The notes under the pieces: generated by a model
Told to the model about the DNA's origin: nothing
What the model saw: only the letters and a program-made list of their open reading frames with translations
Database searches by the model: none
NCBI GenBank assembly: GCA_045655765.1
Contig: JAZOQA010000022.1
Span: 4,573 to 68,572 of the forward strand
Source of the DNA: Eubacteriales bacterium
GTDB lineage: Bacteria; Bacillota; Clostridia; Oscillospirales; CAG-272
DNA length: 64,000 nt
Direction of reading: 5' to 3'
Program-made: the position numbers and the translations under genes
Shown: piece by piece, positions 12,101-50,041 of the stretch
Position numbering within the stretch: position 1 is the first letter of the stretch
Layout: each line of letters starts with the position of its first letter

Positions 12101-15100
12101 TCCTTACCAAAGAGGCAGGAGGCGTGAGCGACAAAATCCCCGATATGGAGGGAGGAAAGGCGCAAGACCTCTATTTGCCACAGACACGTGCTTTGCGTAG
12201 CATTATGAAGTATGTCAAGGCTGAACTTGAAAGGTATGACAAGATGAGCGGTAAGGAGAAGAAAGAGAACAGCCATATACCACTCACTATGTACGGCATT
12301 GCCAAAGCAGCAGCCGTTGATGCCCGATTGGTGCAGTCGGATGCAGAGGACGATGCACAGAGCAAGACCAACGAGGCAGTAAGACAGACCTTGCGTTCGC
12401 TCAAAGAGAGTGCAGACTATAAGGGTACTGTTGCCATCTTCGCCGACAACTACCAAAACAAAGAGAGCGGTTTCAACTTGTATGAGGACATTCGTACCAA
12501 ACTTATTGCAGAGGGTGTTCCTGCCGATGAGATTGTAGTAATCAAGTCGGGAATGACAGTCAAGAAGAAACTCGAAATCTTTGAAAAGGTAAATCGTGGC
12601 GAGGTGCGTGTTATCCTCGGTTCTACTTTTACCCTCGGTACAGGTGTGAACATACAGGAGAGATTGTACACATTGATACATCTTGACGCTCCTAACCGCC
12701 CTATGGACTACACCCAGCGTAACGGACGTATCTTGCGACAAGGAAACTTGCACAAGGCAATGGGTAAACCTGTACGTGTGTTGCGTTTCGGTGTTGAGGA
12801 CAGTTTGGACGTTACCGCATATCAGCGACTGAAAACAAAGGGTGCAATTGCCGACAGCATTATGAACGGCAAGCAGATGATGGCAAACAGTATGACCAAC
12901 CGTGTGCTTGAAGAGGAAGAAGATGTATTCGGTGATACCGTTGCTCAACTCTCGGGCAGTGAGTATGCAATGTTGAAGAACAATGCTGAAAAGAATGTCC
13001 GCAAGTATGCAAGCCGTAAGAAGCAGTGGGAGGCAGACCAAACCTATATCCACAATGCGAAACCAAGAGTAAAAGCCTTTATCAAGGATGCAGAAAAGCG
13101 TATCGAAGATAATAGCCGATACTTGGAGGCTGTACGTGCATCGTTCCCCGATGGCAAGTTCAAGGAGATTGTTATCGGCAAACATCGCTTCGCTACCATT
13201 GAAGCAATGGAAGATTTCTTCAAGGAACACAACAAGAGTTTGCTTGCAGAAATGAAGCAGATGAAAGACGGCGATATTGCAGGCGAGCAGAAACGACAAC
13301 TGACCATACAGATAGGTGATTTCTCGTTTGTCGTAACTACCAAACTGACAAGACAGGCGGTAAGAGACGGAGCAACCCTGTTCAATGATGTAGAAAGAAA
13401 AATGACCTACTCTTGTGCCGAACTTGGTATCGAGGACATTCCTGTACGTCAAAATCTTCTCCGCAATGCCATTGAGGATATTACCAATAATGTCATTACA
13501 GGCAGAGACTTTGCCGAGCGTGTGGAAATTGCCGAGCGTGTCAAGAAGCACAACGAGACAGAATTGGAACAACTCTTATCAAGAGAGGGCAAGCCGTTTG
13601 AGTATGAGGCTGAATTGGAACAGGCGCAAACTCAATATGAGGAGTTCTCGGAACTGATGAAGAAAGAGTTGGCAGAAAAGGAAGCCAAGTATGCGGAAAT
13701 GGACGCTACTGTAGAAGCTGCCAACGACCTTGCAACAGCAGAGGAAGCAGACGAACTCGAACGTGAGGGTGACGGTGCATATACGGATGATGAGGTCTCT
13801 TTTGAGAACGACCCTATTTCAAAGGTACTTGGAAAACCGAGATTTACCCGTAAGCAGCGCAGAGAGTTTGCAGAGCGTGAACGTCAGAGAATGGTTGCTC
13901 GTGTGGAAAATCTTGCAAAGAAACTCAATCTTGACAATGTTGAGATTGTGACTGATGCAAGTACATTGGAGGGCAAGAAACAGCGTGCAAAGGGTTTCTA
14001 CACAAAGAGTACAGGCAAGATAACTATTGTTATCCCTAACCATTCAAGCACGTTTGATGTTGAACAGACATTACTCCACGAGGCAGTTGCCCATTATGGA
14101 TTACGTCAGTTGTTCGGAGAGCATTTTGATACGTTCCTCGATAATGTATTCAATAATGCAGATGAGGCTATCCGTCAGCGCATCGTTGCACTTGCGGCAA
14201 AGAACGGTTGGGACTTCCACAAGGCGACCGAGGAATATCTTGCTATGCTTGCAGAGAACACCGAATTTGAGAACACCAATGCAAGTTGGTGGAGACAGAT
14301 TAAGGATTTCTTCTTGAATATGCTTCACAAGATAGGTTTTGAGGATTTCAGAGGAGTTACTCTGACTGATAACGAACTCCGCTATATACTGTGGCGCAGT
14401 TACGAAAACCTTGCGGAGCCGGGCAAATACCGTAGCATCTTGGGCGAAGCTGCTGATGTGGCAAAACAGTACGAGTTGGGTGTTGGTAACTATGCGGTTA
14501 CCAATCCCAATACTCCGCACGCTGCCGAGAGCGATGATGAACTCTATCGTGATGGAGACCCCGAAATTCACGAAAGAGAGTTGGCACGAGACCGTTATGA
14601 AAGACGTGTAAAGACAGGTATGTTCCAATCACAGGAGGCATTGCAGGATAGTATGCTCGGACTGAAAGAAGCAATGCAGGCTATCCTTGGCCAAGGAACA
14701 AACATTGAAGATGTGGACGGCTTCGAGAATGCTTACTTGGGCGAAAACCGTCTGTCAAGTGTGAACAAAGCCGAAGCAGATGCTTTCGCACAGACATTGT
14801 TCAAGCCAATGCTTGATGAGGTTGCCAAACTTGCCCGAAACGAGGCTGAACGTGAGGAACTGACCGACTATATGATGGCTAAACACGGACTTGAACGTAA
14901 TGCGTATATGCGCAATGAGGCTATCAAGAATGGTGCTACTGATGCAGACCAAACCGACTATGCCGGACTGACTGCCCTAACAGGTATGGACGATGTTGCA
15001 GATGCCGAAGCGGAAGCACAACGAATGGTTGATGATTACGAACAGGCACACGAGACTGCCGACCTTTGGGAGAAAGTCAATGCCGTAAGCAAAGCAATCT

Positions 15101-17475: not shown

Positions 17476-17488
17476 TTATACTTGAAAA

Positions 17489-17529
17489 GAATGCTTGGGA
17501 TAGTACCTTTGTGGCTATCCTAAGCATTC
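17489..17529 (+). terminator. Hairpin between the polyvalent gene and the portal gene
   Basis: GAATGCTTGGGATAG-N11-CTATCCTAAGCATTC forms a 15-bp stem with one G-T pair, followed by A/T-rich sequence. It may be an attenuator rather than a full terminator. Confidence 0.4.
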
Positions 17530-17546
17530 TATAATATTCAACGATT

Positions 17547-19520
17547 ATGCATACAGAAAAAGGAAATAAAAGGTTATTGTCTATGAGCCGTATCGCTCCA
17601 AAGCGTGATACGGAAGAGATAGACACCGTAGCGATGTCTTCCCGGCAGTTCGGCGACCGCAGGGCGTTCGATGTGCTGATGGAAGCGCAGCACTATTGGA
17701 ACCAGATGGAGGATTTCCGAAAGGACAGAGAACGCAACAAGCGTTACACCTATGGTTTCCAATGGGACGATAAAATTTGTGTGGACGGCAAGACTATGAC
17801 CGAGGAGGAGTACATCAAGAGTCAAGGCAATGTGCCGTTGAAAAACAACCTTATCCGCAGATTAGTCAAAAGTGTGCTTGGTGTGTACCGCAGTCAGAGC
17901 AAAGAGCCGACCTGTACCGCACGAGACAGAGACGAACAGAAATTGGGCGAAACAATGAGTACCATTCTGCAATGCAATATGCAACTCAACAGAATGACGG
18001 AGGTGTACGCCCGAACAATGGAAGAGTTTCTAATCAGCGGTTTTATAGTACACCGCAAGTCATACGGTTGGCGTAATGGTAAGGAGGATTGTTGGACGGA
18101 CTATGTTCAGCCGAACAATTTCTTTATCGACAACAATATGCGAGATTTCAGAGGTTGGGACGTGTCTGTTCTTGGCGAGATACACGACATTTCATTTGGG
18201 CAGTTGTGTGAGCAGTTCGCCTCATCGCCCGAAGAATATCGCAAACTCCGTGAAATCTACAAGTGGGCTGCAAAAAAGGAATACATTGCCTCGTATGCAG
18301 AGCGTTTCGGATATAGCCGTTTGCAGAATTACGACTTTCTGTTCACGAGCGAGCCGGGACGATGCAGGGTTATCGAGGTGTGGCGCAAGGAACAGAAACC
18401 ACGTTGGCGATGCCACGACTACCAAAATGGCGACATCTTCAAGATTGACGTTGAGGACTACCAAAGGTGTGTTGTAGCCGAGAACGAGGAGCGTATAAGA
18501 ATGGCAAAGGCTGTCGGTATGCCCGAGGACGAAGTGCCATTGATTAAAGCCACTTGGTTTGTCGATGATTATTGGTATTTCTACTATCTGTCCCCATTTG
18601 GCGACATCTTGAAAGAGGGCGAAACACCATACGAACACGACAGCCACCCATACGTATTCAAGGCATATCCGTTCATTGACGGTGAGATACATTCATTTGT
18701 GGCTGACGTAATCGACCAACAGCGATACACCAACCGACTGATTACATTGTACGATTGGATAATGCGTGCAAGTGCTAAAGGTGTGCTGATGATGCCCGAG
18801 GATTGTTTGCCGGATGGTGTCAGCATTGACGATATTGCCGAGAGTTGGACCGAGTTTAACGGTGTCATTGTCTATAAGCCGAGCAAGAGCGGTAAAGTGC
18901 CGGAACAGGTTGCCAACAATTCGACAAACATCGGTATTGCCGAGCTGCTGAATATGCAGTTGAAGTTCTTTGAGGACATTTCGGGTGTAACAGGTGCATT
19001 GCAAGGCAAGCCCGGATTTTCGGGCGAAAGTGCTGCACATTACCAACAGCAGACACAGAACGCCACCACTACATTGCTTGACCTATTGGAGTGCTTCAGC
19101 GGCTTTGTTGTGGACGGAGCGTACAAGGATGTCAAGAATATGCAGCAGTTCTATGACAGCAAGAGAGTATTCAACATTGCAGGCAAGAGCGGCGCACAAA
19201 TCGAGTACGACCCGAAGAAGATACGAGACGTAGAGTTCGATTTGAGCATTACCGAAAGCACAACGACACCTGCGTACAGGCATCTTGCCAACGATATACT
19301 GTTGCAGTTGTGGCAATCGCAGGCAATCAGCGTAGAGCAGTTGCTTGAACACGGAGACTTCCCATTTGCTGATGAATTGTTGCAGAGCATCAAATCTCAG
19401 AAAGAGCAGTTAGAGCAGGGCAAAGTTCCTGACGGTCTTTCTCCCGAACTGATGGCGAAAGCACAGCAGGGAGCCAATATGCAAGCCGTAGGAAGATTGC
19501 ACAGCGCAATGGCAGCATAA
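17547..19520 (+). CDS. Portal protein (probable)
   Basis: A 657-aa ORF convergent with terL. The segment ...GIAELLNMQLKFFEDISGVTGALQGKPGFSGESAAHYQQQ... resembles portal core regions. The call rests mainly on position and size. Confidence 0.55.
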   Translation: MHTEKGNKRLLSMSRIAPKRDTEEIDTVAMSSRQFGDRRAFDVLMEAQHYWNQMEDFRKDRERNKRYTYGFQWDDKICVDGKTMTEEEYIKSQGNVPLKNNLIRRLVKSVLGVYRSQSKEPTCTARDRDEQKLGETMSTILQCNMQLNRMTEVYARTMEEFLISGFIVHRKSYGWRNGKEDCWTDYVQPNNFFIDNNMRDFRGWDVSVLGEIHDISFGQLCEQFASSPEEYRKLREIYKWAAKKEYIASYAERFGYSRLQNYDFLFTSEPGRCRVIEVWRKEQKPRWRCHDYQNGDIFKIDVEDYQRCVVAENEERIRMAKAVGMPEDEVPLIKATWFVDDYWYFYYLSPFGDILKEGETPYEHDSHPYVFKAYPFIDGEIHSFVADVIDQQRYTNRLITLYDWIMRASAKGVLMMPEDCLPDGVSIDDIAESWTEFNGVIVYKPSKSGKVPEQVANNSTNIGIAELLNMQLKFFEDISGVTGALQGKPGFSGESAAHYQQQTQNATTTLLDLLECFSGFVVDGAYKDVKNMQQFYDSKRVFNIAGKSGAQIEYDPKKIRDVEFDLSITESTTTPAYRHLANDILLQLWQSQAISVEQLLEHGDFPFADELLQSIKSQKEQLEQGKVPDGLSPELMAKAQQGANMQAVGRLHSAMAA

Positions 19521-26140: not shown

Positions 26141-26779
26141 ATGACAGTCTATCCACTTGATAAGATTGCGGAAGATGTTCGCATAGCACTTGACCAAAAT
26201 ATGTCGAGTGATGCGCTGACAGAAATCGGCGATGTGGACACCCTTGCCCTCAATGACATCATCAAGTCGAAGATTGTTGAGGCTGTCAAGCGCATACACA
26301 GCGAAGCACCCCCTCACTTACTTGACGGAGGTCATAATTTCGGCGATGCCGTGTATTGGATGGAACACGAAAGCGGTTGGGTACTCTTGCCGGAGGACTT
26401 TATGCGCTTTGTGGTGTTCGAGATGGACGATTGGGCGAGACCTGTTTTCACCTGTTCCAACACGGACGACCCCGAATATGAGAAGCAACATTCACGCTTC
26501 AAAGGCATACGAGGCACGGCGCAACGCCCTGTCTGTTTCGTTTCGATACGTCCAGAGGGACGTGTGTTGGAGTTCTATTCCTGCAAGAGCGAGGAGGCAA
26601 TGGTAAGCCGTGCCGTATATCTTCCCTATCCAAAAGTGGACGAATACGGTGCTATCGAGATTTGTCAGCGATGTTACGATGCAGTGGTTTACACCACAGC
26701 AGCATTAGTGTTAATCACGTTCGGCGACACGGAGCGAAGCAACGTGTTGAACGAATTGGCTAAATCAACTTTAATATGA
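26141..26779 (+). CDS. Hypothetical structural protein (head-tail adaptor candidate)
   Basis: A 212-aa ORF between the head genes and the fibre gene. Its stop overlaps the fibre ATG (ATGA). Positional call only. Confidence 0.45.
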   Translation: MTVYPLDKIAEDVRIALDQNMSSDALTEIGDVDTLALNDIIKSKIVEAVKRIHSEAPPHLLDGGHNFGDAVYWMEHESGWVLLPEDFMRFVVFEMDDWARPVFTCSNTDDPEYEKQHSRFKGIRGTAQRPVCFVSIRPEGRVLEFYSCKSEEAMVSRAVYLPYPKVDEYGAIEICQRCYDAVVYTTAALVLITFGDTERSNVLNELAKSTLI

Positions 26780-29700
26780 GTTCAATAAAGACGACACAGA
26801 TTGACGGTGATGTTTCCGTTGGTCGCAACGTGGCTGTTGGTGGCAGAGTAACCGTTCAAGGCAGTTCCCAATTCAAGGGAAGTGTAAAGATTGAGGGTTG
26901 GCTTGATGCCAAGAACATCAAAGGAGCGAACAAAGGTATCTTCACTTCGATAGAGAAATTGAAAGCCGCCTATCCATTGCCTCACGATGGTTGGTGGGCT
27001 ATTGTCGGAAAAACTCTCCCCGGGCCCATTTATGTGGGTGATGGTGGCGAATGGGTAGCCACAGGCGAAGAGGGAGGAAATCCGACCGTTGATAGCGAGC
27101 AGTACAACGAAGCCGTAGCCGAGTTGCAGGGAGACATTGCCCTGTTGGAGCAAGATGTGAAAGACATCGAAGCCAAAGACAAGGCGCAGGATACTCAACT
27201 GACGACTATCGGCGGACAGGTAAACAACCTGCAAACTAAATTAGATACCGTAGAGAGCACAGCCAATGAAGCCAAGACAAAGGCAAATTCGGTGGGTGCT
27301 GACCTTGCATCATTCAAAGCGACAAAGGGAGCGGCAAACGGACTTGCCCCATTGGGCGATGATGCCAAAATCCCTGCAACCTATTTGCCCGGTTTTGTCG
27401 ATGATGTGATTGAGTTTGCAGAGGCAGTAGAAAAAATTGTAGTGCAACAAACCGAACTTGGCTCTGTTTCGGAATATACACGTGTTGTTTATAACAAGGA
27501 CAGCAACGTGTTCGTAATTGCTCGCATCGTTGAAATAGAAAATGAGAGTGGAGAAATAGAGAACGAGATTTACTATTATCCAAAGTGGGAAGATAGTGAA
27601 ATTTGGGGACTACAATCCTATAATGGCGTTATTCCACAGGCAGGTAAGGTTTATGTTGATAAGTCGAGAAACATCACTTATCGTTGGAGCGGCAGCACCC
27701 TTGTTGCCATTGGCTCAGACCTTGCTTTGGGCTATACCGATAGTACGGCATTTCCCGGTAGTGACGGTAAGAAGTTGCAGGACGATATGCAGACTGCACA
27801 GACGAACATCAGTACTCTCAACAAAAACCTTACAGGCGCAACCGCACACATAATTGCCCGAAGCGTAGTTAATGTAAACCAACTGTTCGGTTTGACAGGC
27901 AGAGAAATCACGTTTGCCGTAGCCCTTGACCGCATCGCCAACTATGAGGCAGCAGCCACCATTCAGATACCGGGCGTTGTACTTACGTTCCTTACAGAAA
28001 ATGGTTGGCAGTCGAAGCAGTGGACAAATACCGCTGATTGGACTACTGAAAGCAATTGGACTGACTTCGGTGCAAACGGAGAGAGCATTGGCAACACAAT
28101 CAACGTGAATGCCCTTTGTGATAACATCGAGTATTCGTTGAGTACCGCCATTCAAGCCGTGCAGGACTTGGAGAAAGAAAGCGGACTATCCTACTTCAAG
28201 AGCGGTGTTGTGCTGACATTCAAGACCGCAGACACCGACCTCAACGGCGCACCTGTATGGCTTGCCTATCAGTTCACACGAGAGGTAGCCGACATAAACC
28301 CTGCCGATGAAAAGCCTTGGGTTGCTTTCGGTGGCGGAGGTAGCGGCAATGTGGAAACCGCAGATGTACCCGAGAAAGCCGGCAAGCAAGCCCTTTCAAC
28401 AGGCGGTGCATACGAAATGCAGGAGAAAGCCATCGGCGGTTTTGACGAAGAGAGCGATGAGGACTACATCTATTACAAGGCTGTAAACCTCAACGGCGCA
28501 CAACTTCCCGATGTGCAAATCAAGATACCGAAGAATACAGGAGGTGGCGGTTCGAGCGAGGACAGCACCCTGTCTATCTACTTTGAAGAAGCTGCACCTA
28601 CCGTAGCATACGGCTCTGACATCATCGTAAATGTTGCCTTGCGTAGCGTAAGTTACCCGGACGGCAACGAGGTATTGGGCGTTATCCGTAGCCTCGCTAT
28701 CGTTGATGCAAGTACAGGTTTGACACTGTTCAGCGAGAGTATGAACGAGGTCGGTTCGGCAAGTGCCACCGATTACAAGTTCGCCCTTGACTTCACAGAG
28801 TATTTCAGCAGTGCTGCATCAAAGAGTTTCTTTGTACAGGCAACCGATGCGGACGGAAACAGCAAGAAGAAAGCCATTACCATTGTGGCGGTCGATGTTA
28901 CCGTTGAGCAGCCTATGGCATTGAACTACACAAGTAGCACGGCATTGACCGTAGGCGGCTCTGCAAAGAGTATCGGTCAGTTCTATAAGTTCCCTAACAA
29001 CTCATCGTCTATCCTTGCCGTTGTGGAAATGCTCTATAACGGAGAATGGAAGAAGTTGGGCGAGGCGACCGTAAGCGACAGTTACACCAAGAGTATTTCG
29101 GTAAATCCGAGCAATGTGTTTGGCGGTGGCGAACGTCTCTTGCACGGTGCATACCCTGTGCGCATTTATGGTATTGAAACCAAGTCGAGAGTAAGGGGTA
29201 ACACCATCTATTCGGCTATTATGTGCGTTGATGCAGACAACACGACACCGATTGTTGCTATCCGCTTCAACGACACCAATAACGGCTCGTTGCGCCTGTA
29301 TGACAACTTGACCGTTGAGGTTGCCGCATACACTTCAGGCAAGACCGAGACACCTATTAGGGTGTATTATGGCGATGAACTTGTAACCTCCGTTGAGGCT
29401 ATGATTGCCGAGACTATCAAGGTAAACAAGCAGATACAGGGCTACCGTACTGACGGAACACAGCAAATCATCGTACACGCAGAGAGTGGTCTTTCAATAA
29501 CCAATCCAATAGAGGTAACTGTATCGGGCAGTGCCATTGGTGCCGTAATCAAAGACGGTGCTTTGTTCGGCTTCGACTTTGCAAGCCGTAGCAACAGCGA
29601 GAGCGACCATACCATTAAGAACAATGGCGTGGAAATGGTTGTGAAAGGCTCGAACTATTCAAGCAACGGTTTCGTGGACTACCTCGGTGAGCGTTGTTTG

Positions 29701-32700
29701 CGTATTGCAGAGAATGTAACGGCAGAGATTGTCGGCTATAACCCATACGGCAATTCAGCCACAGAACGCACGACAGGTAATGCCATTCAGTTTGCCTTTG
29801 CCACAAAGAACATCAAGGAGGCAAGTGCCAAACTCATTGAGTGCTACGACCCCGATAGCGGTGTAGGCTTCTATTTGTGCGGTAATAAGGCTGCTATCTA
29901 CTGCAAGACAGGACAGCCTACATTGGTAGAGCGTTCGTTCAAGTGTGCCGAGAAACACACAATGGCGGTAGTCGTTGAGCCGTCCACCATCTATGTAACA
30001 CGTGGTGGCAGCAACTACTCGTGCATCAAACTGTACTTGGACGGTGAGGAGGTGGGCTGTATCGGTTACATCAGCAATAGCGGTGCTATCCTCAACAGCA
30101 AGACAATCACATTCAATGGAACTGAGGGCGATTTGTATCTGTACTATTTCCTTGCCTACGACAGCCATTATGAGTGGGCACAGGCATTTCAGAACTACTT
30201 GTGCAAATTGACCGATACCCCTGCTATGATTGCGGAGTACGAGAAAGAGGATGTGCTTGACACGCAGAACCGCCCGACACTTGAAAAACTGAAAGAGAAA
30301 GGTATCCCGTACTATGTCGTAGTACAGGAGCAATCCACCTTTGACACGTTTGACGGCGATATTGACACAAGCAAGAAGTTTGAGTGTACGCTGTACTACT
30401 ACCACCCGACAATGCCTTGGCGCAGCTTTAAGGCAGTAAAAGTTCAGTGGCGCAGACAGGGTACGACTTCGGCAAAACGTCCTATCAAGAATGACCGCTT
30501 CTACTTGCGCAAGAATGAGGGCTGGGAAGTAACACCTATCTACCCGGACTACACCAACGAGGATGCGTTGATTTCATACGAGTTGATGAAACTCGGCTAT
30601 GTGCGTGTAGGCGAAAACTCCATTCCTGTAAGCATCATCACCGTAAAGGTGGACTATTCGGACAGCTCGGGTGTAAACGACTGCGGTGTTTGTGACTTGA
30701 TGAACGCTACTTATCGTGCGCTCGGCAGCAACTATCTGACCCCTGCACAGCGAGCCTTTGACGGCACTTGGGAGAAGAAAGGAGTAAGGCTGACAGGCTT
30801 ACAGATGAACCACTCAACCGCCAACCACCCGATTGCGGCATTCCGTTCGACAATGGAGAGCCTTACCGATGCTTGGTTTCACGCAAAGGGCAATTGGAAA
30901 GAGGATAAGAACGAACAGTTGGCACTTGGTTTCCTTGATACACCCGGCTACAACTTAGGCTGTGTGAACTATGGCGATTTCATTGAGTATTTCGGTAAGG
31001 AGGGCGAAACACTTGACCAAATCGAAATGCGCTTCAAGAATGACAGCACCACCGACAAGAGCCAACTTTACCTGTTGTCGCTCTACTGTGGCGAGAACTA
31101 CCGCTTTATGGCATACGAGAGCGGAGCGTGGACGGCACAGAAAGGCGAAATGAAGCAGGTAAACGGCAAGTGGCAGATAACAGGTAAGGTGCTCAACCCT
31201 GTGAGCGGTTACGAGTTGTTGAGTTATGACGGCTTGAATTGGTGGCAGGGAGTTGGCAGCATTGCCGATATGATGGAGCCGACCACCGCCGAAGCATCTT
31301 GGGTTACCAAACTGAAACTCGGACAGCCTACATACCCGATGTGGACACGCTACTTCGAGTGTATGATTGACGATGACCAACTGCAAGAGGACTTGGCAAT
31401 GGGTCGCAAAGTTCCATACGACCTGTATCAGATGTTGGTGTTCTGTAATAGTTGCGACTATTCAAAGGCTGAACTTGCCGACACTTGGCAGAACATTTGG
31501 AAAACGCAGATGTGGAAGTATGCCAATCCGTACTCGCTTGTGGCGTACTACCTCTTTACTGACTACCTCGCAGCCGTTGACCAACAGGCGAAGAATATGC
31601 AGCCTATGTGGTTCTTGGAGGACGGATGTAGTGTGAAAGACGGCGTATATAGCGGTGCGAACGGTATGAACGCACGCCGTATGTACTGTAACAAGGTGTA
31701 TGACTGTGATACCTGTAACGGAAAGGACAATGACGGTGGACAGACCATTGACCCCGAAGTTGACCCGGGCGACTTGACAAGCAGCGCATACGCAGGACGT
31801 GGCTCTGTGCTTTGGAACAACATCAGAGGACAGCAGACAATGGAGGTTGACCAAAACGGCAACACCATTACCCTGTTGGCTATCGCTGACACTATGCGTT
31901 CATTGCCGGACACACTCGGCATTGGTGCAGGACCATTCTCGCCAAAGGGCGCATTGCACTACTTTGTTGATGAGCGTCTGAAGAAGTGGCCAAAGGTTGT
32001 TTCAAGTTTTGACGGAGAGCGTAAGTACATCAAGTACACAGGTTATAGCGACATCTATTTCTACGCTCTGCAAGGTCTTGGATTGACCTCTCTTCCTGCG
32101 TTCATTGAACAGCGTTGGCGCATCAGAGACGGTTACTACCGTTGTGGCGACTTCAAGGCTGAAAGCGGTTATATCGGCGGTCGTATTGGTGCAAAGGACG
32201 GTGCAGTTATCCGTTTCAAAGCAGCCAAGACAGGTTATTTCGGTATCGGTAACGATAGCGGTAACATTACCGAGGGTATCTACCTGCAAGCAGGCGAAGA
32301 GGGCGTGTTCAGCAACTTCCAACACGGTGAGAACATTATGCTCTACATATACCAGGCAGACCGTATGAGTATGCTTGACTTGAGCGAAGTGAGCATCGAC
32401 CCACAGTTCGGTAACACCTTGTCGAAAATGGCACTCTTGCAGGAGTTGTATTTGGGTAGCGAGACACACGGAGATTGGACAATGTCGCCCGGTAACACAG
32501 GCTATATGACCAATCTTGATTTGGGCGATATGCCGTTCTTGCGTATTCTTGATGTGCGCAATACCGAGGTGCAGACGATGAACGCATCGAAGTGTCCTCG
32601 CTTGGTATCGGTATATGCAGAAAGCACCTCGCTTTCTACCATTACCCTTGCCGAGACATCGCCTATCAAGGAACTGACACTGCCCAACACGATGACCGAA

Positions 32701-34707
32701 ATTGTGTTGAACAACCTGCCAAGCCTTACCTATCCGGGCGGTTTGAAGATTGCAGGTATGGGCAAGGTTGCAAAGGTATTTGTGAACAACTGTTCTCACG
32801 TTGATACAATGAGCCTGTTGGAACAGATTACCACCGCAAGTGCGTTGAAAACCGTTCGTATTCCTAACGTGAACGTGTCGGCAAGCGTTGATATGCTCCG
32901 TGCTGTCAAGGATAGCGGTGCAATCGGTCTTGATGCCAACGGCAATGCCTACGATGAGAGCGGACAGTGTAGCGGTATCACAGGACGATGGATATTGACC
33001 GAACTTATTGAGGAAAGCGAAGTAGCAGCTTTGCAGGACTACTTCAAGGAGTTGAGCATCTACAACGCCCAATTCTCGCAGGTTATCTTTAATGACGAGG
33101 AAGAGGATTGCTACAACATCACGAATGTGGATAACAAGACAGGTTACCTGTATGGCAACAAGTACGAGAAGAGCGGACACTTTGCACGTATAGAGGCAGA
33201 GAGCCACGCCTACCGTGCCATCTATGATGCAAGTGCAGGAGCGATGAAATGCCGTCAGTTGAGCGATGCCGACTACAATTATTTTGCAGACGGTACGCAA
33301 CTTGACTTGAGCGATACATCGGGCGAAGGTTTTGATATTATGAAGCGTTTGAAGCCTTATTGGTATAAGGGTGTGAACGACTACAAAAATCAGCAGAAGC
33401 ACTTCTTTGCCTCATCGCAAGAGAATGAGCCTATGAGTACCGCCAACAAGATAACCCGAAAGAAACTGAGCGAAATTCTGTTGCAGGAACTATCCTCTGT
33501 GTTCGTGTCGGGCAACAGTGTGGGCAGTCCGTTGGTGATTACCGAGAACGCCAACCACAACACCTATTCGATGGATGTTGAGGGTATGAAGCAGGTACGC
33601 TTCCCCGGTGTCAATTCGAGTGCGGTCGGTGGTGCTTTCGTGGATGAAAACGACAATGTGGTATCGTTGTTCAATATGTACGTTACACATTCTCTGTTTG
33701 ACTTCACACCGGGTGAATACATCTTCTGTGATGTTCCGCAGGGTGCTAAACGCTTTGTGTTCTCTTCACAGACAGGATTGGACGATATTGAGACAATCGC
33801 CGTAGATAGCAATGCCATTGAAGCTATTGAGCCTGATTGGGTGCATACTCCCGACCGTCTCATCGGTGTATATGGTGCATCTGTGGACGGACTTATGCGC
33901 TTGCGCTCTATCAGCGGTGTAAAATCGCAGGTAGGTACAGGAGCCGCCACAAATACCGAATGGACTTACGATGAGAACGGAAAGGTAACCAATGTTACTG
34001 CGCCCAATGTAAAGGGCTTTTCTTGCAAGGACTTTATGAACCTTGCTATGTTCCGCAGGAACGGCTATCAAGCCATTGACTACGAAATGAGCAAGGACGT
34101 TGCCAACCTTGTTATGGCATTGATTGGTACACGTGATATTCAAGCATACGCAGGCTATGGTTGCAGTGCAGGTTATACGACAGGTGCGAACTCGCTGAAC
34201 ACCTATGGTAATCAGACACGTAAGTATTCGGGTAGCAATATCGGTAACTTGATATTCGGTATTCAGAACTTCGTAGGCTGTAACTATGAGTGGACTGACA
34301 ATGTAGCGGTGAACGTGGTATCGTTCAAGTCGTTCTTGAAGAACAAAGGTGTTGCCATTACTGCCGATGTGGTTGATAGAGTTGTACATATCTATGACCC
34401 TGCAACCGATACTGAGCGTACAGTTAAAATGTGCGATGGTACAGGTTATTGCATCGGGCGTGTCCGCTTTGGTCGTTACTGTGGCTATTTTGCATCAAGA
34501 CTTACAAATGACAATTCCGCTTGGAATAAGTGGTACACTGACGCACAATACTATACCGCAGATAAAGCCCGTGTGGTTGGTCGTGGCGGTAACAATGCGG
34601 TTGCGGTCGTCGGTCTCGTCTGTTCGGTCGCGAATAACGCGTCTTCGCACTCGAACACGAACTACGGCTCTCGGCTCGCCTTCATCGGAAAAATCGAAAT
34701 TGAGTAA
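26776..34707 (+). CDS. Giant tail fibre / receptor-binding protein (2,643 aa); DGR target 1
   Basis: It has the fibre-type motif GAANGLAPLGDDAKIPATYLP (about 27330-27400), an N-terminal coiled coil, leucine-rich repeats (about 32370-32880), and a C-terminal C-type-lectin-like variable segment VVGRGGNNAVAVVGLVCSVANNASSHSNTNYGSRLAF that contains VR1. Confidence 0.85.
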   Translation: MSSIKTTQIDGDVSVGRNVAVGGRVTVQGSSQFKGSVKIEGWLDAKNIKGANKGIFTSIEKLKAAYPLPHDGWWAIVGKTLPGPIYVGDGGEWVATGEEGGNPTVDSEQYNEAVAELQGDIALLEQDVKDIEAKDKAQDTQLTTIGGQVNNLQTKLDTVESTANEAKTKANSVGADLASFKATKGAANGLAPLGDDAKIPATYLPGFVDDVIEFAEAVEKIVVQQTELGSVSEYTRVVYNKDSNVFVIARIVEIENESGEIENEIYYYPKWEDSEIWGLQSYNGVIPQAGKVYVDKSRNITYRWSGSTLVAIGSDLALGYTDSTAFPGSDGKKLQDDMQTAQTNISTLNKNLTGATAHIIARSVVNVNQLFGLTGREITFAVALDRIANYEAAATIQIPGVVLTFLTENGWQSKQWTNTADWTTESNWTDFGANGESIGNTINVNALCDNIEYSLSTAIQAVQDLEKESGLSYFKSGVVLTFKTADTDLNGAPVWLAYQFTREVADINPADEKPWVAFGGGGSGNVETADVPEKAGKQALSTGGAYEMQEKAIGGFDEESDEDYIYYKAVNLNGAQLPDVQIKIPKNTGGGGSSEDSTLSIYFEEAAPTVAYGSDIIVNVALRSVSYPDGNEVLGVIRSLAIVDASTGLTLFSESMNEVGSASATDYKFALDFTEYFSSAASKSFFVQATDADGNSKKKAITIVAVDVTVEQPMALNYTSSTALTVGGSAKSIGQFYKFPNNSSSILAVVEMLYNGEWKKLGEATVSDSYTKSISVNPSNVFGGGERLLHGAYPVRIYGIETKSRVRGNTIYSAIMCVDADNTTPIVAIRFNDTNNGSLRLYDNLTVEVAAYTSGKTETPIRVYYGDELVTSVEAMIAETIKVNKQIQGYRTDGTQQIIVHAESGLSITNPIEVTVSGSAIGAVIKDGALFGFDFASRSNSESDHTIKNNGVEMVVKGSNYSSNGFVDYLGERCLRIAENVTAEIVGYNPYGNSATERTTGNAIQFAFATKNIKEASAKLIECYDPDSGVGFYLCGNKAAIYCKTGQPTLVERSFKCAEKHTMAVVVEPSTIYVTRGGSNYSCIKLYLDGEEVGCIGYISNSGAILNSKTITFNGTEGDLYLYYFLAYDSHYEWAQAFQNYLCKLTDTPAMIAEYEKEDVLDTQNRPTLEKLKEKGIPYYVVVQEQSTFDTFDGDIDTSKKFECTLYYYHPTMPWRSFKAVKVQWRRQGTTSAKRPIKNDRFYLRKNEGWEVTPIYPDYTNEDALISYELMKLGYVRVGENSIPVSIITVKVDYSDSSGVNDCGVCDLMNATYRALGSNYLTPAQRAFDGTWEKKGVRLTGLQMNHSTANHPIAAFRSTMESLTDAWFHAKGNWKEDKNEQLALGFLDTPGYNLGCVNYGDFIEYFGKEGETLDQIEMRFKNDSTTDKSQLYLLSLYCGENYRFMAYESGAWTAQKGEMKQVNGKWQITGKVLNPVSGYELLSYDGLNWWQGVGSIADMMEPTTAEASWVTKLKLGQPTYPMWTRYFECMIDDDQLQEDLAMGRKVPYDLYQMLVFCNSCDYSKAELADTWQNIWKTQMWKYANPYSLVAYYLFTDYLAAVDQQAKNMQPMWFLEDGCSVKDGVYSGANGMNARRMYCNKVYDCDTCNGKDNDGGQTIDPEVDPGDLTSSAYAGRGSVLWNNIRGQQTMEVDQNGNTITLLAIADTMRSLPDTLGIGAGPFSPKGALHYFVDERLKKWPKVVSSFDGERKYIKYTGYSDIYFYALQGLGLTSLPAFIEQRWRIRDGYYRCGDFKAESGYIGGRIGAKDGAVIRFKAAKTGYFGIGNDSGNITEGIYLQAGEEGVFSNFQHGENIMLYIYQADRMSMLDLSEVSIDPQFGNTLSKMALLQELYLGSETHGDWTMSPGNTGYMTNLDLGDMPFLRILDVRNTEVQTMNASKCPRLVSVYAESTSLSTITLAETSPIKELTLPNTMTEIVLNNLPSLTYPGGLKIAGMGKVAKVFVNNCSHVDTMSLLEQITTASALKTVRIPNVNVSASVDMLRAVKDSGAIGLDANGNAYDESGQCSGITGRWILTELIEESEVAALQDYFKELSIYNAQFSQVIFNDEEEDCYNITNVDNKTGYLYGNKYEKSGHFARIEAESHAYRAIYDASAGAMKCRQLSDADYNYFADGTQLDLSDTSGEGFDIMKRLKPYWYKGVNDYKNQQKHFFASSQENEPMSTANKITRKKLSEILLQELSSVFVSGNSVGSPLVITENANHNTYSMDVEGMKQVRFPGVNSSAVGGAFVDENDNVVSLFNMYVTHSLFDFTPGEYIFCDVPQGAKRFVFSSQTGLDDIETIAVDSNAIEAIEPDWVHTPDRLIGVYGASVDGLMRLRSISGVKSQVGTGAATNTEWTYDENGKVTNVTAPNVKGFSCKDFMNLAMFRRNGYQAIDYEMSKDVANLVMALIGTRDIQAYAGYGCSAGYTTGANSLNTYGNQTRKYSGSNIGNLIFGIQNFVGCNYEWTDNVAVNVVSFKSFLKNKGVAITADVVDRVVHIYDPATDTERTVKMCDGTGYCIGRVRFGRYCGYFASRLTNDNSAWNKWYTDAQYYTADKARVVGRGGNNAVAVVGLVCSVANNASSHSNTNYGSRLAFIGKIEIE
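34569..34677 (+). repeat. DGR variable repeat VR1
   Basis: A 109-bp gap-free alignment to the TR. There are 12 mismatches, all at TR adenines. Confidence 0.9.
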
Positions 34708-34739
34708 AGCGATGGAAGCGAAAAGAACGAAACACGTCA

Positions 34740-34773
34740 GAGTGAGAGACCCTGTTTAGGGGTCTGCTCACTC
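34740..34773 (+). terminator. Stem-loop after the fibre stop codon (terminator or DGR-associated structure)
   Basis: GAGTGAGAGACCC-tgtttag-GGGTCTgCTCACTC forms a 13-bp stem with one bulge. The trailing T-tract is weak. Two further small hairpins follow: CCGCCC/GGGCGG at 34784-34801 and GCAGTC-GCAA-GACTGC at 34827-34842. Confidence 0.4.
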
Positions 34774-34866
34774 TTGCCTGTTACCGCCCGACAAAGGGCG
34801 GCGAGAAAAGAAATGAAAGTTTAACGGCAGTCGCAAGACTGCAAAAAAGGTAGAGTGTCTCCATAG

Positions 34867-34975
34867 CCGTGTGGTTGGTCGTGGCGGTAACAATGCGAAT
34901 GCGAACAACGGTCTCGTCTATTCGAACGCGAATAACGCATCTTCGAACTCGAACACGAACAACGGCTCTCGGCTC
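34867..34975 (+). repeat. DGR template repeat (TR)
   Basis: An AAC/AAT-rich 109-bp non-coding copy of VR1 and VR2 with 27 adenines, located 170 nt upstream of the RT gene. It may extend to 34985. Confidence 0.9.
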
Positions 34976-35145
34976 ACAATCAAAGCAAATAAACGTGGGT
35001 GTTGTTCACCACGCTTATATATAATCGTTCTAACTGCACGGCTACGTGTAGCCACCGCAGGGAGCGAGAGACACGAGCCTCGGCAACCCTCTCCGCAAGG
35101 AAGAAAGCCGGAACATAACTGAGTGCCTTGAAGGCATAGAACAAT

Positions 35146-36498
35146 ATGGAAAAGACAATATTTCCCCTCAACAATCTGATGAGCGAGATTGCTACGAGGG
35201 AGAATGTAGAAGAAGCCTTTGACTACGTTGTCAGCCACCTTGAATGTAAGGAACAGCGTGAGAAATACTACCCTCAACGAGAGAAGATGTGTAGCAGGCT
35301 GCTGAAAGACTTGGCAAACGGGACATTCCGTATTACCGAGTTCAACGAAATGGAGGTCAAAGATGGTCCGAAAGTAAGGCGAGTGCAAGCCCCACGAGTG
35401 TATGGGCGTGTCGGTTGCCACGCCATTATGGTAATTGTTGAGAAATACACTTACCCTACGCTCATCAAGAACACGGCGGCAAGTATTCCCGGACGTGGTA
35501 TGCATTGGCTACATCACATTGTTGAAGCCGATGTAAAGAGCGTGCCGGAACTGACACCGTTCTACTATCAGTGCGATATACACCACTACTACGATAGTAT
35601 TGAGCAGTGGAGAATGAAAGCATTGATAAGAGAATACATCAGCGACCCTGTGCTGTTGCCGATACTTGACAACTTTATCGAACTATTGCCCGAGGGTTTA
35701 TCAAAGGGACTACGTTCCTCGCAATGCTTCGCCAACCTGTTCCTGTCGAGGTTAGACCACCTTATGATAACGGAGGTGGCATCATACGAGTTGGAGCAGA
35801 AAGACGGCTCTTTTGAGGTGCGCTATCTGTATTACCGCTATTGCGATGACATTGTAATGTTGGCAAGCAGTAAAAAGGAACTATGGCGATTGAGGGACAT
35901 TCTTGTAGCCCACGTTGAAAGCATCGGATTGAGAGTGAAGCCCAACGAGGCTGTGCGCCCTCTTGAAGAATGCGGACTTGACTACCTCGGCTATGTGGAC
36001 TATCGCACACATTCGCTGATACGAAAGCGAACGAAACAGAAAGCAGCCCGACACTTGGCCAAGGTGAAATCGAGAAAGCGCAGGCAATCCATTATCGGCT
36101 CATTCAAAGGAATGGCGTGCCACGCTGATTGCAAACATTTGTATTATAAACTAACAGGAAAGAAAATGAAAAAGTTTGGAGAATTGGGTGTAACCTACAC
36201 CCCGAAAGACGGAAAGAAAAGATTTCCGGGTAACACTGTAAGACTTGCAGCGATACAGAACATACCCATAGAGATACACGACTATCAGACGGATATGAAA
36301 ACACCCCACGGCGATGGTCGCTATCTTGTTTCGTTCAAAGACAAGCAGACCGAACAATGGGGCAAGTTCTTTACCGCCTCGGAGGAAATGAAGAATATCC
36401 TTGACCAGATAAGCGACATTGAGGACGGTTTCCCATTTGAGACCAAAATCACGAGTGAGCGTTTTGACGGTAACAAAGTGAAGTACAGTTTCACATAG
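35146..36498 (+). CDS. DGR reverse transcriptase with a C-terminal extension
   Basis: A 450-aa ORF with RT motifs, including the DGR-typical ...GLRSSQCFANLFL... and YRYCDDIVML (CDD at 35842-35850). About 105-110 aa extend beyond the thumb region. Confidence 0.9.
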   Translation: MEKTIFPLNNLMSEIATRENVEEAFDYVVSHLECKEQREKYYPQREKMCSRLLKDLANGTFRITEFNEMEVKDGPKVRRVQAPRVYGRVGCHAIMVIVEKYTYPTLIKNTAASIPGRGMHWLHHIVEADVKSVPELTPFYYQCDIHHYYDSIEQWRMKALIREYISDPVLLPILDNFIELLPEGLSKGLRSSQCFANLFLSRLDHLMITEVASYELEQKDGSFEVRYLYYRYCDDIVMLASSKKELWRLRDILVAHVESIGLRVKPNEAVRPLEECGLDYLGYVDYRTHSLIRKRTKQKAARHLAKVKSRKRRQSIIGSFKGMACHADCKHLYYKLTGKKMKKFGELGVTYTPKDGKKRFPGNTVRLAAIQNIPIEIHDYQTDMKTPHGDGRYLVSFKDKQTEQWGKFFTASEEMKNILDQISDIEDGFPFETKITSERFDGNKVKYSFT

Positions 36499-36572: not shown

Positions 36573-37049
36573 ATGGAAAAAAGATACGGAGCCACCGAGA
36601 GGCACGACCGCCTAATGAAAATCGGTCGCAATAAATGGGAACTGATATACGGTTACGGCACAGATGGCGTGTCGGGTTGGACTTATAGGGAGCGTTTCAC
36701 ACGTAAGCCTACACAGGATGAGATAAAGGAGATTATCATCGCCCAAATCAACCGCAATGTGGAGGAAAAGATATTGTGCGGCTTGGTGTGGAAAGATATG
36801 CCTATATGGCTATCCACAGAAAACCAATTTAATTACAAGGCAGCTTATGACTTGGCTGTGCAGACAGGCGGACAATCGTTGCCTGTGAAGTTCAAGTTCG
36901 GCACAGACGAGCAGCCTGTTTACCACACATTCACTACGCTTGATGATTTGCAGGAGTTCTATATGACATCGTTGGCGTTCGTTCAGCAGGTGCTTGATGA
37001 GGGTTGGCAGGAAAAGGACAACCTCGATTTGAGTGTATTTAACCAATAA
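36573..37049 (+). CDS. Hypothetical protein (DUF4376-like; weak)
   Basis: A 158-aa ORF after the RT gene. It is W/Y-rich with a mixed-fold look (...KILCGLVWKDMPIWLSTENQFNYKAAYDLA...). It does not look like a helical Avd. Confidence 0.45.
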   Translation: MEKRYGATERHDRLMKIGRNKWELIYGYGTDGVSGWTYRERFTRKPTQDEIKEIIIAQINRNVEEKILCGLVWKDMPIWLSTENQFNYKAAYDLAVQTGGQSLPVKFKFGTDEQPVYHTFTTLDDLQEFYMTSLAFVQQVLDEGWQEKDNLDLSVFNQ

Positions 37050-49399: not shown

Positions 49400-50041
49400 T
49401 TATCCCTGCTTTCCTACTTCCTTTGGTTTGAAACAGAAGTCGGCATAAATCTCGGCGAACTGCCTACCTGCGTAGGCTGCGAGTTTTTCGCTTTTGAAGG
49501 CGAGCCGAGCGCCGTAGCTCGTGTGCGGGTACGAAGATGCGTAATACGCGTGCGAATAGACGAGACCGCTGTACGCATACGCATAGTTACCGCCACGACC
49601 AACCACACGGCTTTTATCCTCAGCAGATAGTTTGTCGTACTGCTCTTTGGTGATTAGGTCGTACCAAAAATACCAACGGCGTTCGCCCTTTGTGAATTGA
49701 GGTTCCCAACCCTCGTTGAGAGCTGCGGTGATGATGCGGAGTTGGAGGTATGCCACCAAATCATAGTCGTTCATATCGTGTTGGTGGATATGCGACACAT
49801 AGCCGTCATAGGCTTTTACGAATGGGTGGTCAGAGCCGAGTTCACGACAAGCATCGGCAAATGTCTTGATGCGCTCTGTTACGTCCTGTGGCTTCTCATC
49901 TACGAGGGTGAGTACACCATCAACCCATTTTGCAACTTTCCCTACGGGGATTTCGATTTCTACTTTCTTGGTCTTGTTTTCCATACTGTTGTTTGTTTTA
50001 ATTGGTTTGAAAATCCTTTTGATAATGATTAAAGTGTTCAT
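49400..50041 (-). CDS. DGR target 2: small protein with a C-type-lectin-like variable C-terminus
   Basis: 213 aa, ending ...SRVVGRGGNYAYAYSGLVYSHAYYASSYPHTSYGARLAFKSEK... and containing VR2. The ATG at 50041 overlaps the stop of the upstream 55-aa ORF (ATGA). Confidence 0.8.
   Translation of the reverse strand: MNTLIIIKRIFKPIKTNNSMENKTKKVEIEIPVGKVAKWVDGVLTLVDEKPQDVTERIKTFADACRELGSDHPFVKAYDGYVSHIHQHDMNDYDLVAYLQLRIITAALNEGWEPQFTKGERRWYFWYDLITKEQYDKLSAEDKSRVVGRGGNYAYAYSGLVYSHAYYASSYPHTSYGARLAFKSEKLAAYAGRQFAEIYADFCFKPKEVGKQG
49502..49610 (-). repeat. DGR variable repeat VR2 (remote, opposite strand)
   Basis: The reverse complement aligns gap-free to TR 34867-34975. There are 13 mismatches: 11 at TR adenines and 2 at TR thymines. 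Confidence 0.85.

Follow-up and report, generated by a model that had tools for sequence, protein, structure and literature searches.

The window, the whole stretch of 64,000 nt analyzed here, carries with high probability (about 93%) a functional Hankyphage-type DGR in a temperate Bacteroidales phage of ~64 kb that is related to BS-TP4 and BKO1-TP3. According to the proposed mechanism, a non-coding RNA that includes a template repeat (TR, 34867-34975) and the RT-3 RNA (35023-35136) would be reverse-transcribed by the reverse transcriptase (RT) encoded directly downstream, which would misincorporate opposite template adenines. The resulting cDNA would replace the homologous 109-nt variable repeat (VR) at two sites, VR1 in the lectin tip of a 2,643-aa protein and VR2 in a 194-aa protein, and the directionality of the transfer would come from a VR-specific 3' flank (GGCTC/GCCTTCA) that is absent from the TR. 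This DGR family has already been described in Hankyphage, BS-TP4, and LoVEphage.

The first pair of repeats comprised the following features.
34569..34677, plus strand: variable repeat VR1, different from the TR at 12 positions, each of them a TR adenine
34867..34975, plus strand: TR, non-coding template repeat with 27 adenines and 12 AAC/AAT codons, homologous to the TRs of BS-TP4 and Hankyphage

Both repeats were aligned by direct sequence comparison over 109 nt without a gap, and the recount of the differences yielded 12 mismatches, 12/12 at TR adenines and none at any other base, which agrees with the initial annotation in the length of the alignment, the number of mismatches (12 of 27 adenines), and the identity of all non-A sites. 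For a TR composed of A27 C30 G29 T23, 12 random mismatches would all coincide with the 27 adenines with a probability of C(27,12)/C(109,12) = 5.5e-9. The codon changes from TR to VR1 were also exactly those listed before: AAT to GTT, AAC to GTC (three times), TAT to TGT, GCA to GCG, AAC to CAC, and AAC to TAC. VR1 accounts for the final ~45 codons of the 2,643-aa ORF at 26776-34707. The TR, when read in the VR frame, contains 12 Asn codons, possesses no credible ORF (the sole frame found was a GTG-initiated copy of the VR), and has its end 170 nt short of the RT start at 35146, as expected from its earlier description as a non-coding, AAC/AAT-built repeat at about this distance. A repeat search of the window revealed the TR/VR1 pair as the sole long direct repeat across 24-40 kb. 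The similarity continues for ~14 nt beyond 34677 and 34975 with five further A-site differences; because VR2 and all relatives have these in identical form, they represent fixed differences of the flank rather than diversification.

A second site matching the TR was located ~15 kb from the cassette on the opposite strand; A-tolerant scans of both strands of the window found no third VR.
49502..49610, minus strand: VR2, second and distal variable repeat with 13 mismatches to the TR, 11 of them at adenines
49400..49984, minus strand: target gene 2 in the early/replication module, encoding a 194-aa protein (phrog_11581, E = 1e-49); the longest ORF reaches 50041

The 11/13 VR2 mismatches at TR adenines correspond to P = 1.9e-6, and the two remaining ones are a T>C and a T>G change. 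In the relatives, VR2 follows its cognate TR outside the adenines and is variable at them, and these copies, with 0 to 2 non-A mismatches, are still tracking their own TR. Most database homologues of target 2 also have a length of 194 aa, and in 120 metagenomic homologues of the VR2 protein, an entropy of ~3 bits was reached at the A-templated codons and at no others. Over the C-terminal 70 aa, target 2 and the tip of target 1 share 48% identity, and the LoVEphage homologue of target 2 also bears a VR. A sequence search of the PDB with the VR2 protein remained empty. The product of target gene 2 is probably intracellular, and no signal peptide was seen in it. The gene belongs to the early module, and a DNA methyltransferase gene is nearby.

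Evaluation of the turnover of these repeats used related loci as a population proxy. When the complete window TR was used as an exact pattern with A replaced by N, IMG/VR gave no match, and a TR-pattern scan of metagenomes returned two contigs; since the TRs of the relatives differ from the window TR at 3 to 5 sites, which the exact pattern does not tolerate, the related loci were retrieved via the RT. In 17 related TR/VR1 pairs, 225/226 mismatches were at TR adenines. Close relatives contained eight distinct VR1 variants, each differing from its own TR at A alone, and non-A substitutions in the TR (idx 18, 51, and 55) reappeared in the VR1 and VR2 belonging to that TR. On one metagenome contig (L158), with DNA 97.9% identical over 11.3 kb, the TR was identical at 109/109 positions and VR1 was different, which indicates that turnover of VR1 was more recent than any TR substitution. 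Taken as sequence evidence, these data support an ongoing TR-to-VR transfer, that is, VR turnover on a constant TR, and the relatives suggest that the DGR may be currently active in this genome, too.

The region downstream of the TR contains the components that may perform this transfer.
35023..35136, plus strand: RT-3 RNA (Rfam RF03068, 61.5 bits), structured spacer between TR and RT
35146..36498, plus strand: DGR reverse transcriptase of 450 aa, RT core at about residues 1-335 plus a C-terminal domain, assigned by bRT homology and motifs
36166..36495, plus strand: SSB-like OB-fold domain at the RT C-terminus (M341-T450), with an invariant Met as its first residue; matches phrog_19665

The Rfam covariance model scored the RT-3 RNA with 61.5 bits at a gathering score of 40.5 (E = 4e-14), and folding of the 438-nt intergenic RNA gave z = -4.6. 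The RT-3 RNA ends 9 nt upstream of the RT start codon and was found at the same position in 15/17 related loci, including that of Hankyphage (146.6 bits). It probably makes up the 3' portion of the template RNA of the DGR, and RNA priming may occur within it. Within the set of papers searched, none paired "RT-3" with DGR.

In a phmmer comparison, the RT proved homologous to the Bordetella bRT (PDB 8ub7, E = 3e-14), with the residues KGLRSSQCFAN aligned to IGSLTSQLFAN of bRT and YCDD aligned to YMDD. It matched phrog_1423 with an E value of 2e-85 and Pfam RVT_1 with 26.4 bits, below the cut-off of 29.6, and was 51% identical to the RT of BS-TP4, 43% to that of Hankyphage, and 32% to that of LoVEphage. 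The assignment as a DGR-type RT with an SQ..AN motif was confirmed by the alignment with bRT. Non-functionality of the CDD active site had been named in the initial annotation as an observation that would speak against a DGR; the motifs GxxxSQ..AN and YCDD were nearly invariant across 31 homologues, which answers this objection. The C-terminal domain matched phrog_19665 (E = 3e-19), and its AF2 model (pLDDT 86) had the layout b1-b2-b3-helix-b4-b5. Significant structural matches came from the library of predicted viral structures (BFVD) only, namely, RTs of viruses (E = 7e-6, TM 0.71) and ssDNA-binding proteins of phages, and a Foldseek search of the PDB returned nothing below E = 0.1, with OB folds matching weakly. 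The domain was fused to the RT in 108/142 related loci. Stand-alone homologues of ~103 to 109 aa begin at the invariant Met of the RT, and in one distant relative (L149), the domain is a separate gene for 98 aa. Its modeled fold suggests that this SSB-like domain may bind nucleic acids.

The protein that carries VR1 at its end is encoded upstream of the TR.
26776..34707, plus strand: target gene 1, ORF for a 2,643-aa putative virion (tail-fibre-like) protein that ends in a C-type-lectin domain of the DGR type

Target 1 matched phrog_14959 over the full length with 3,130 bits and gp14 of BKO1-TP3 and BS-TP4, also over the full length, with 69% to 70% identity; its residues 842-2640 were 27% identical to the DGR target of Hankyphage. 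With an AF2 model of the C-terminal 334 aa (pLDDT 79), Foldseek returned TaqVP (5vf4, E = 1e-6, probability 1.0) as the best PDB match, then Mtd (1yu0-1yu4, E = 1e-2), with FGE and snake CLecs as further matches. According to this model, the VR1 domain is a C-type-lectin fold like those of TaqVP and Mtd, in line with the C-type-lectin-like variable end proposed before. Other parts of the previous description of target 1 have to be revised. The protein had been called LRR-containing, and a search of residues 1601-2100 and of seven overlapping 500-aa segments revealed no Pfam LRR even at E <= 1; the best phmmer match of residues 1840-2080 to the PDB had an E value of just 0.74. An LRR-like solenoid is conceivable for residues ~1890-2030. 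It had also been called unusually large, yet its size is normal for the family, as judged from the full-length homologues in BS-TP4 and BKO1-TP3 and the 2,245-aa target of Hankyphage, and DGR targets of ~2,000 aa have been reported (PMC12694917). The designation as a fibre is weaker as well: homology and context suggest a putative fibre, and target 1 may have a receptor-binding role. No Pfam tail-fibre domain was found in target 1. By eye, an L..L.L-like periodicity can be seen at residues ~1890-2030.

Two features are located around the end of target gene 1.
34665..34684, plus strand: VR1 3' boundary, IMH-like target mark with the G+C-rich end CGGCTCTCGGCTC followed by GCCTTCA, where the TR has ACAATCA
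34731..34782, plus strand: strong hairpin just 3' of the stop codon of target gene 1, candidate terminator and/or cruciform-like element

The sequence GGCTC-GCCTTCA is common to VR1 and VR2, whereas the TR reads GGCTC-ACAATCA, and the bases distinguishing VR from TR at this boundary were fixed in all relatives compared. BS-TP4 and Hankyphage display a like contrast between VR and TR at the 3' boundary. By analogy with BPP-1, the 3' flank of the VRs may act as an IMH. In BPP-1, hairpins adjoin the end of the VR, but here they are 55 to 110 nt away from the VR ends, and the hairpin at 34731..34782 may serve to terminate transcription and/or form a cruciform-like structure.

The accessory protein Avd is frequent in DGRs but not universal. 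Neither 47 small or medium-sized ORFs of the window nor further proteins scanned had a match to Avd (PF05635) in Pfam at E <= 0.01, and there is no ORF between VR1 and the TR. The gene downstream of the RT encodes another protein.
36573..37049, plus strand: DUF4376 gene, cassette-linked, probable tail-fibre chaperone (Pfam DUF4376, phrog_19239)

Its product scored 24.8 bits with Pfam DUF4376 at a cut-off of 25, matched phrog_19239 with E = 9e-54, and gave no result in a PDB sequence search. A DUF4376 homologue was encoded in 127/142 RT loci, each with a flank of <= 3 kb, and was directly downstream of the RT in every locus inspected. The protein is 47% identical to that of Hankyphage, which carries the label "Avd" in GenBank (PV107405). 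DUF4376 is a domain of tail-fibre chaperones (PMC7289586, PMC10579305), and from its sequence, the product is probably such a chaperone. Tentatively, and with considerable doubt, this DGR family might work without Avd: the SSB-like OB-fold, which is fused to the RT or encoded by a separate RT-adjacent gene for ~100 aa in distant relatives, would take over the nucleic-acid role of Avd, and the "Avd" of Hankyphage would be a fibre chaperone.

A nucleotide search against phage records yielded one 110-nt match only, and relatives were found at the protein level. The closest cultured relatives are BS-TP4 (PQ571277) and BKO1-TP3 (PQ571269), temperate phages with reported DGRs, that of BS-TP4 predicted by myDGR (PMC12694917). 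Both are collinear with the window and share the giant polyvalent gene, with identities of 87% to 90% for the major head protein, 69% to 70% for the target, and 51% for the RT; their RT and TR are clearly diverged from those of the window. BS-TP4 possesses a single VR with nine A-mismatches and lacks the VR2 of the window, and a RelE/XRE pair is inserted between its target gene and the TR. A crAss-like phage, suggested by the 5,783-aa ORF, was rejected, as this ORF encodes a polyvalent protein in a genome collinear with BS-TP4.

The activity of the Hankyphage DGR was shown experimentally (PMC12135933). Hankyphage (Bacteroides phage p00, BK010646) has the same order of a long target with a C-terminal VR, TR, RT-3, an RT of ~434 to 450 aa including the C-domain, and DUF4376. 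The TRs can be aligned, the 3' boundary has the same contrast of GCCTTC to an A-rich sequence, the targets are homologous over ~1,800 aa, and the RTs are 43% identical. However, Hankyphage is a Mu-like transposable phage of 43 kb and the window represents a BS-TP4-like phage of ~64 kb with a 5,783-aa polyvalent protein. Moreover, one VR is annotated in the stretch of the Hankyphage record examined (L002, 32761-42831) compared to two in the window, and a 64-aa ORF between its VR and TR is without a counterpart here. In LoVEphage and other Bacteroidota prophages, distal second VRs have been described and linked to counter-defence neighbourhoods (Nature 2025, PMC12629997). Like the window, LoVEphage combines a single TR with a pair of VRs. 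The first is located terminally in a tail protein encoded beside the RT, and the second is found ~15 kb off on the opposite strand, where early and methyltransferase genes surround the gene for a homologous 194-aa protein. The target 1 of LoVEphage is different, being a tail protein of 439 aa; its genome is siphovirus-like and includes a tape-measure gene, and its RT is just 32% identical. BPP-1 (bRT/Avd/TR-Sp RNA/Mtd) shares a homologous RT, a CLec target, adenine mutagenesis, and a structured RNA downstream of the TR, in the place occupied by Sp. Its order is VR-avd-TR-RT instead of VR-TR-RT without a detected Avd homologue in the window, which in addition has an extra SSB-like domain on the RT and two targets.

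The adenine-only mismatches, the motifs of the RT, the lectin fold of the tip, and the TR-to-VR transfer in the relatives together uphold the mutagenic retrohoming claimed in the initial annotation. Points that speak against a functional DGR are the undetected Avd, the Pfam RVT_1 score below its cut-off, the two non-A mismatches of VR2, and the distance of the hairpins from the VR ends. If a coding segment had simply been duplicated and its copies had then become different through normal mutation or gene conversion, without reverse transcription, this would explain the existence of a direct repeat and nothing else; with mismatches solely at A in the window pair (P as given above), 225/226 in the related pairs, and a DGR-type RT plus an RT-3 RNA adjoining the repeats, this origin has a negligible probability. 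More weight, although still little, can be given to a genuine DGR that is frozen in this genome, with ancestral VR patterns that are no longer turning over. The two non-A mismatches of VR2 might have arisen by drift after the most recent homing event, and Avd was not detected; but neither the RT ORF, which retains all motifs, nor RT-3 is disrupted, VR1 is free of non-A mismatches, L158 combines an identical TR with a different VR1, and VR2 copies in the relatives with a similar number of non-A mismatches still follow their own TR. This makes a frozen DGR very unlikely compared to a functional one.

A further alternative leaves the mechanism unchanged and concerns the use of its products. The 2,643-aa protein may not be primarily a host-receptor fibre, with its lectin tip binding, for instance, mucus glycans; adherence to mucus was proposed for Hankyphage by Benler 2018 (PMC6199706). 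The missing Pfam tail-fibre domain would agree with this possibility, as would VR2 in an early module near a DNA methyltransferase, given the connection of distal VRs to counter-defence (PMC12629997), and a VR2 protein without a visible signal peptide. On the other hand, the downstream DUF4376 gene is of the tail-fibre chaperone type, the homologue in Hankyphage is treated as a tail fibre, and target gene 1 comes after the head genes, so that a primary function other than receptor binding appears rather unlikely.

The probably functional Hankyphage-type DGR of the window leaves the current picture of DGR biology unchanged and adds a well-resolved member to an abundant family of DGRs in Bacteroidales phages. 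It provides clean comparative evidence that one TR feeds both the tip of a putative virion fibre and a small protein of the early module. The under-described accessory set of the RT-3 RNA, the SSB-like domain of the RT, and the DUF4376 gene could guide mechanistic work on DGRs that lack Avd.

The template repeat (TR) and the variable repeat VR1 aligned without gaps over 109 nt, with 12 mismatches, all 12 on adenines of the TR. For a TR composed of 27 A, 30 C, 29 G, and 23 T, 12 mismatches placed at random would all land on adenines with a probability of 5.5e-9. This direct re-alignment reproduced the match as described in the initial annotation, and the codon changes between TR and VR1 listed there were identical. 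In a repeat search, TR and VR1 were the sole long direct repeat within 24-40 kb. The features concerned are the following.

Features of the diversity-generating retroelement (DGR) and its targets
34569-34677 (+): VR1, the final ~45 codons of the 2643-aa ORF 26776-34707 (target 1)
34678-34684: 3' flank of VR1 (flanks in alignment A1, columns ~128-134)
34731-34782 (+): G+C-rich hairpin just past the stop codon of target 1
34867-34975: TR
34976-34982: 3' flank of the TR
35023-35136 (+): RT-3 RNA (Rfam RF03068), 61.5 bits versus a gathering score of 40.5
35146-36498 (+): reverse transcriptase (RT), 450-aa ORF, aligning to Bordetella bRT
36166-36495 (+): C-terminal domain of the RT, ~110 aa, phrog_19665
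36573-37049 (+): DUF4376 gene downstream of the RT, counterpart at L160 3784-4269
49362-49393: G+C-rich hairpin just past the stop codon of target 2
49400-50041 (-): small ORF bearing VR2 (target 2)
49495-49501: 3' flank of VR2
49502-49610 (-): VR2

Read in the frame of VR1, the TR gives RVVGRGGNNANANNGLVYSNANNASSNSNTNNGSRL, whose 27 adenines all lie in 12 Asn codons and in TAT, GCA, and ACG. An ORF scan found no credible ORF within the TR, and 170 nt separate its end from the RT start codon at 35146, in agreement with the non-coding TR proposed before. The TR is open to gene mis-calling: an 83-aa ORF with a GTG start spans it (34871-35122, +), and the database "protein" P0281 (...NNNANAYGGLVYANANNAGSNSNTNNGVRLTLKV) is evidently the translated TR of a relative.

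The RT matched Bordetella bRT (PDB 8ub7) with an E value of 3e-14, its KGLRSSQCFAN aligning over IGSLTSQLFAN and its YCDD over YMDD, which bears out the DGR-type SQ..AN motif; Pfam RVT_1 was sub-threshold by itself. Both motifs were near-invariant among 31 homologues, so that a defective active site, named at the outset as a possible refutation, does not apply. The spacer between TR and RT contains the RT-3 RNA; 15 of 17 related loci have it at the same position, among them those of Hankyphage (146.6 bits) and BS-TP4. By its position, this RNA may correspond to the Sp region of the DGR RNA of the Bordetella phage BPP-1.

An A-tolerant search for further copies of the TR, run over the entire window on both strands, yielded one, VR2, which differs from the TR at 13 positions; 11 of these are adenines (P = 1.9e-6). 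Target 2 has 194 aa (49400-49984, -) if begun at an internal Met, as in most database homologues, and no signal peptide was seen in it. It sits in the early/replication module, with a replication initiator and a DNA methyltransferase among its neighbours.

Comparison of relatives indicates that these repeats turn over in the lineage. In 17 TR/VR1 pairs from IMG/VR, GTDB, and metagenome relatives, 225 of 226 mismatches were on TR adenines. The metagenome locus L158 shares the window TR in full (109/109) and yet has another VR1, with 14 A-only differences; its surrounding DNA is 97.9% identical over 11.3 kb. The TRs of close relatives (RT 96-99% identical) differ from the window TR at the non-A positions 18, 51, and 55, and their own VR1 and VR2 bear these same changes, which indicates an information flow from TR to VR. 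For target 2, 120 database homologues with 75-93% identity, mostly singleton 90% clusters, showed an entropy of ~3 bits (11-13 residue types) limited to 13 positions (152, 153, 155, 157, 158, 162, 164, 166, 167, 171, 173, 175, and 176), all of them A-templated codons, while the remainder was near-invariant. At the level of sequences, this comparison of relatives, as opposed to reads of the window genome, is the population-level equivalent of the read pile-up proposed in the initial annotation. The DGR interpretation of TR, VR1, and RT was correct, judged by the A-only mismatches, the RT homology, the lectin fold described below, and the variants among relatives.

Directly 3' of the common GGCTC, VR1 and VR2 continue with GCCTTCA and the TR with ACAATCA. 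This contrast resembles the distinction between IMH and IMH*, the 3' marks setting the homing direction in BPP-1, and an IMH role may be assigned to it by analogy. Past this homing boundary, all differences between TR and VR are again on TR adenines, and BS-TP4 and Hankyphage show the same contrast, likewise on TR adenines. The GCCTTCA bases are fixed in all VR copies and encode the Ala-Phe of RLAF. The A-only differences in the flank may reflect chance, a built-in means of keeping the TR from serving as a target, or selection after mutagenesis. The two hairpins lie 55 nt (VR1) and ~110 nt (VR2) from the VR ends and could be terminators or cruciform-like DGR elements.

The final 334 aa of target 1 were modeled with AF2 (pLDDT 79). 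The best PDB match of the model was the DGR variable protein TaqVP (5vf4, E 1e-6, probability 1.0), followed by BPP-1 Mtd, formylglycine-generating enzyme, and snake C-type lectins, which supports the claimed C-type-lectin-like end. The claimed LRR content was not confirmed, since Pfam gave no LRR match in target 1 even at E<=1. Target 1 matched phrog_14959 end to end. Its identity was 69-70% with the homologues of the relatives BKO1-TP3 and BS-TP4, and 27% with the Hankyphage target across ~1800 aa. The designation "fibre" is inferred from the position of the gene after portal and head genes, from the tail-fibre status given to its Hankyphage homologue, and from the DUF4376 of the downstream gene, which in Alteromonas phages is a domain of tail-fibre chaperones (PMC7289586, PMC10579305).

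The window DGR belongs to a published family, of which it is a further member, and its interest is therefore modest. A 2018 study described the Hankyphage DGR (PMC6199706), and experiments demonstrated its activity in 2025 (PMC12135933). The DGR of the Bacteroides phage BS-TP4, whose genome is collinear with the window, was predicted with myDGR (PMC12694917). In contrast to the window, BS-TP4 has only one VR, and a RelE/XRE toxin-antitoxin pair inserted between target gene and TR (L001 10968-11628) increases its VR-TR spacing to 1012 nt, compared to 298 nt in the window. Distal second VRs near methyltransferase genes have been reported from four Bacteroidota prophage species (PMC12629997), and the LoVEphage sequence, when checked, had the two-target layout of the window with a homologous 194-aa target. 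A single 5783-aa ORF (124-17475, +), ~27% of the window, encodes a polyvalent protein with ParB-like, kinase, inorganic pyrophosphatase, SNF2/helicase, and LPD38 domains, the counterpart of BS-TP4 gp3 (1511-17686). The closest matches in genome collections (L095, L096, and L158) were MAGs binned as Rikenellaceae (10-kb contig) and Candidatus Limimorpha (228-kb contig) and a 217-kb metagenome contig, which suggests that Bacteroidales outside Bacteroides carry the phage as a prophage.

No accessory protein Avd was found by Pfam among 47 small and medium ORFs scanned in the window. The C-terminal domain of the RT begins at an invariant Met, and its AF2 model (pLDDT 86) had an OB-fold topology. 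In BFVD, the model matched further viral RTs (E 7e-6, TM 0.71) as well as ssDNA-binding proteins of phages, and in the PDB it gave only weak OB-fold matches, consistent with an SSB-like OB fold. Homologues of this domain are either fused, in proteins of ~430-500 aa, or stand-alone with ~103-109 aa; in the Bacteroidales locus L149, a 331-aa RT is followed by a DUF4376-like gene and then by a separate 98-aa homologue. The domain could be an accessory factor replacing Avd. A DUF4376 homologue was present in 127 of 142 RT loci, each with up to 3 kb of flank, and was just downstream of the RT in every locus inspected. The Hankyphage GenBank record PV107405 carries the note "Avd" on this gene, which conflicts with the chaperone annotation of the domain, and no sequence similarity links the gene to the Avd family. 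The least-explored aspect is the combination of an apparently missing Avd, an SSB-like domain on the RT, and a conserved DUF4376 gene.
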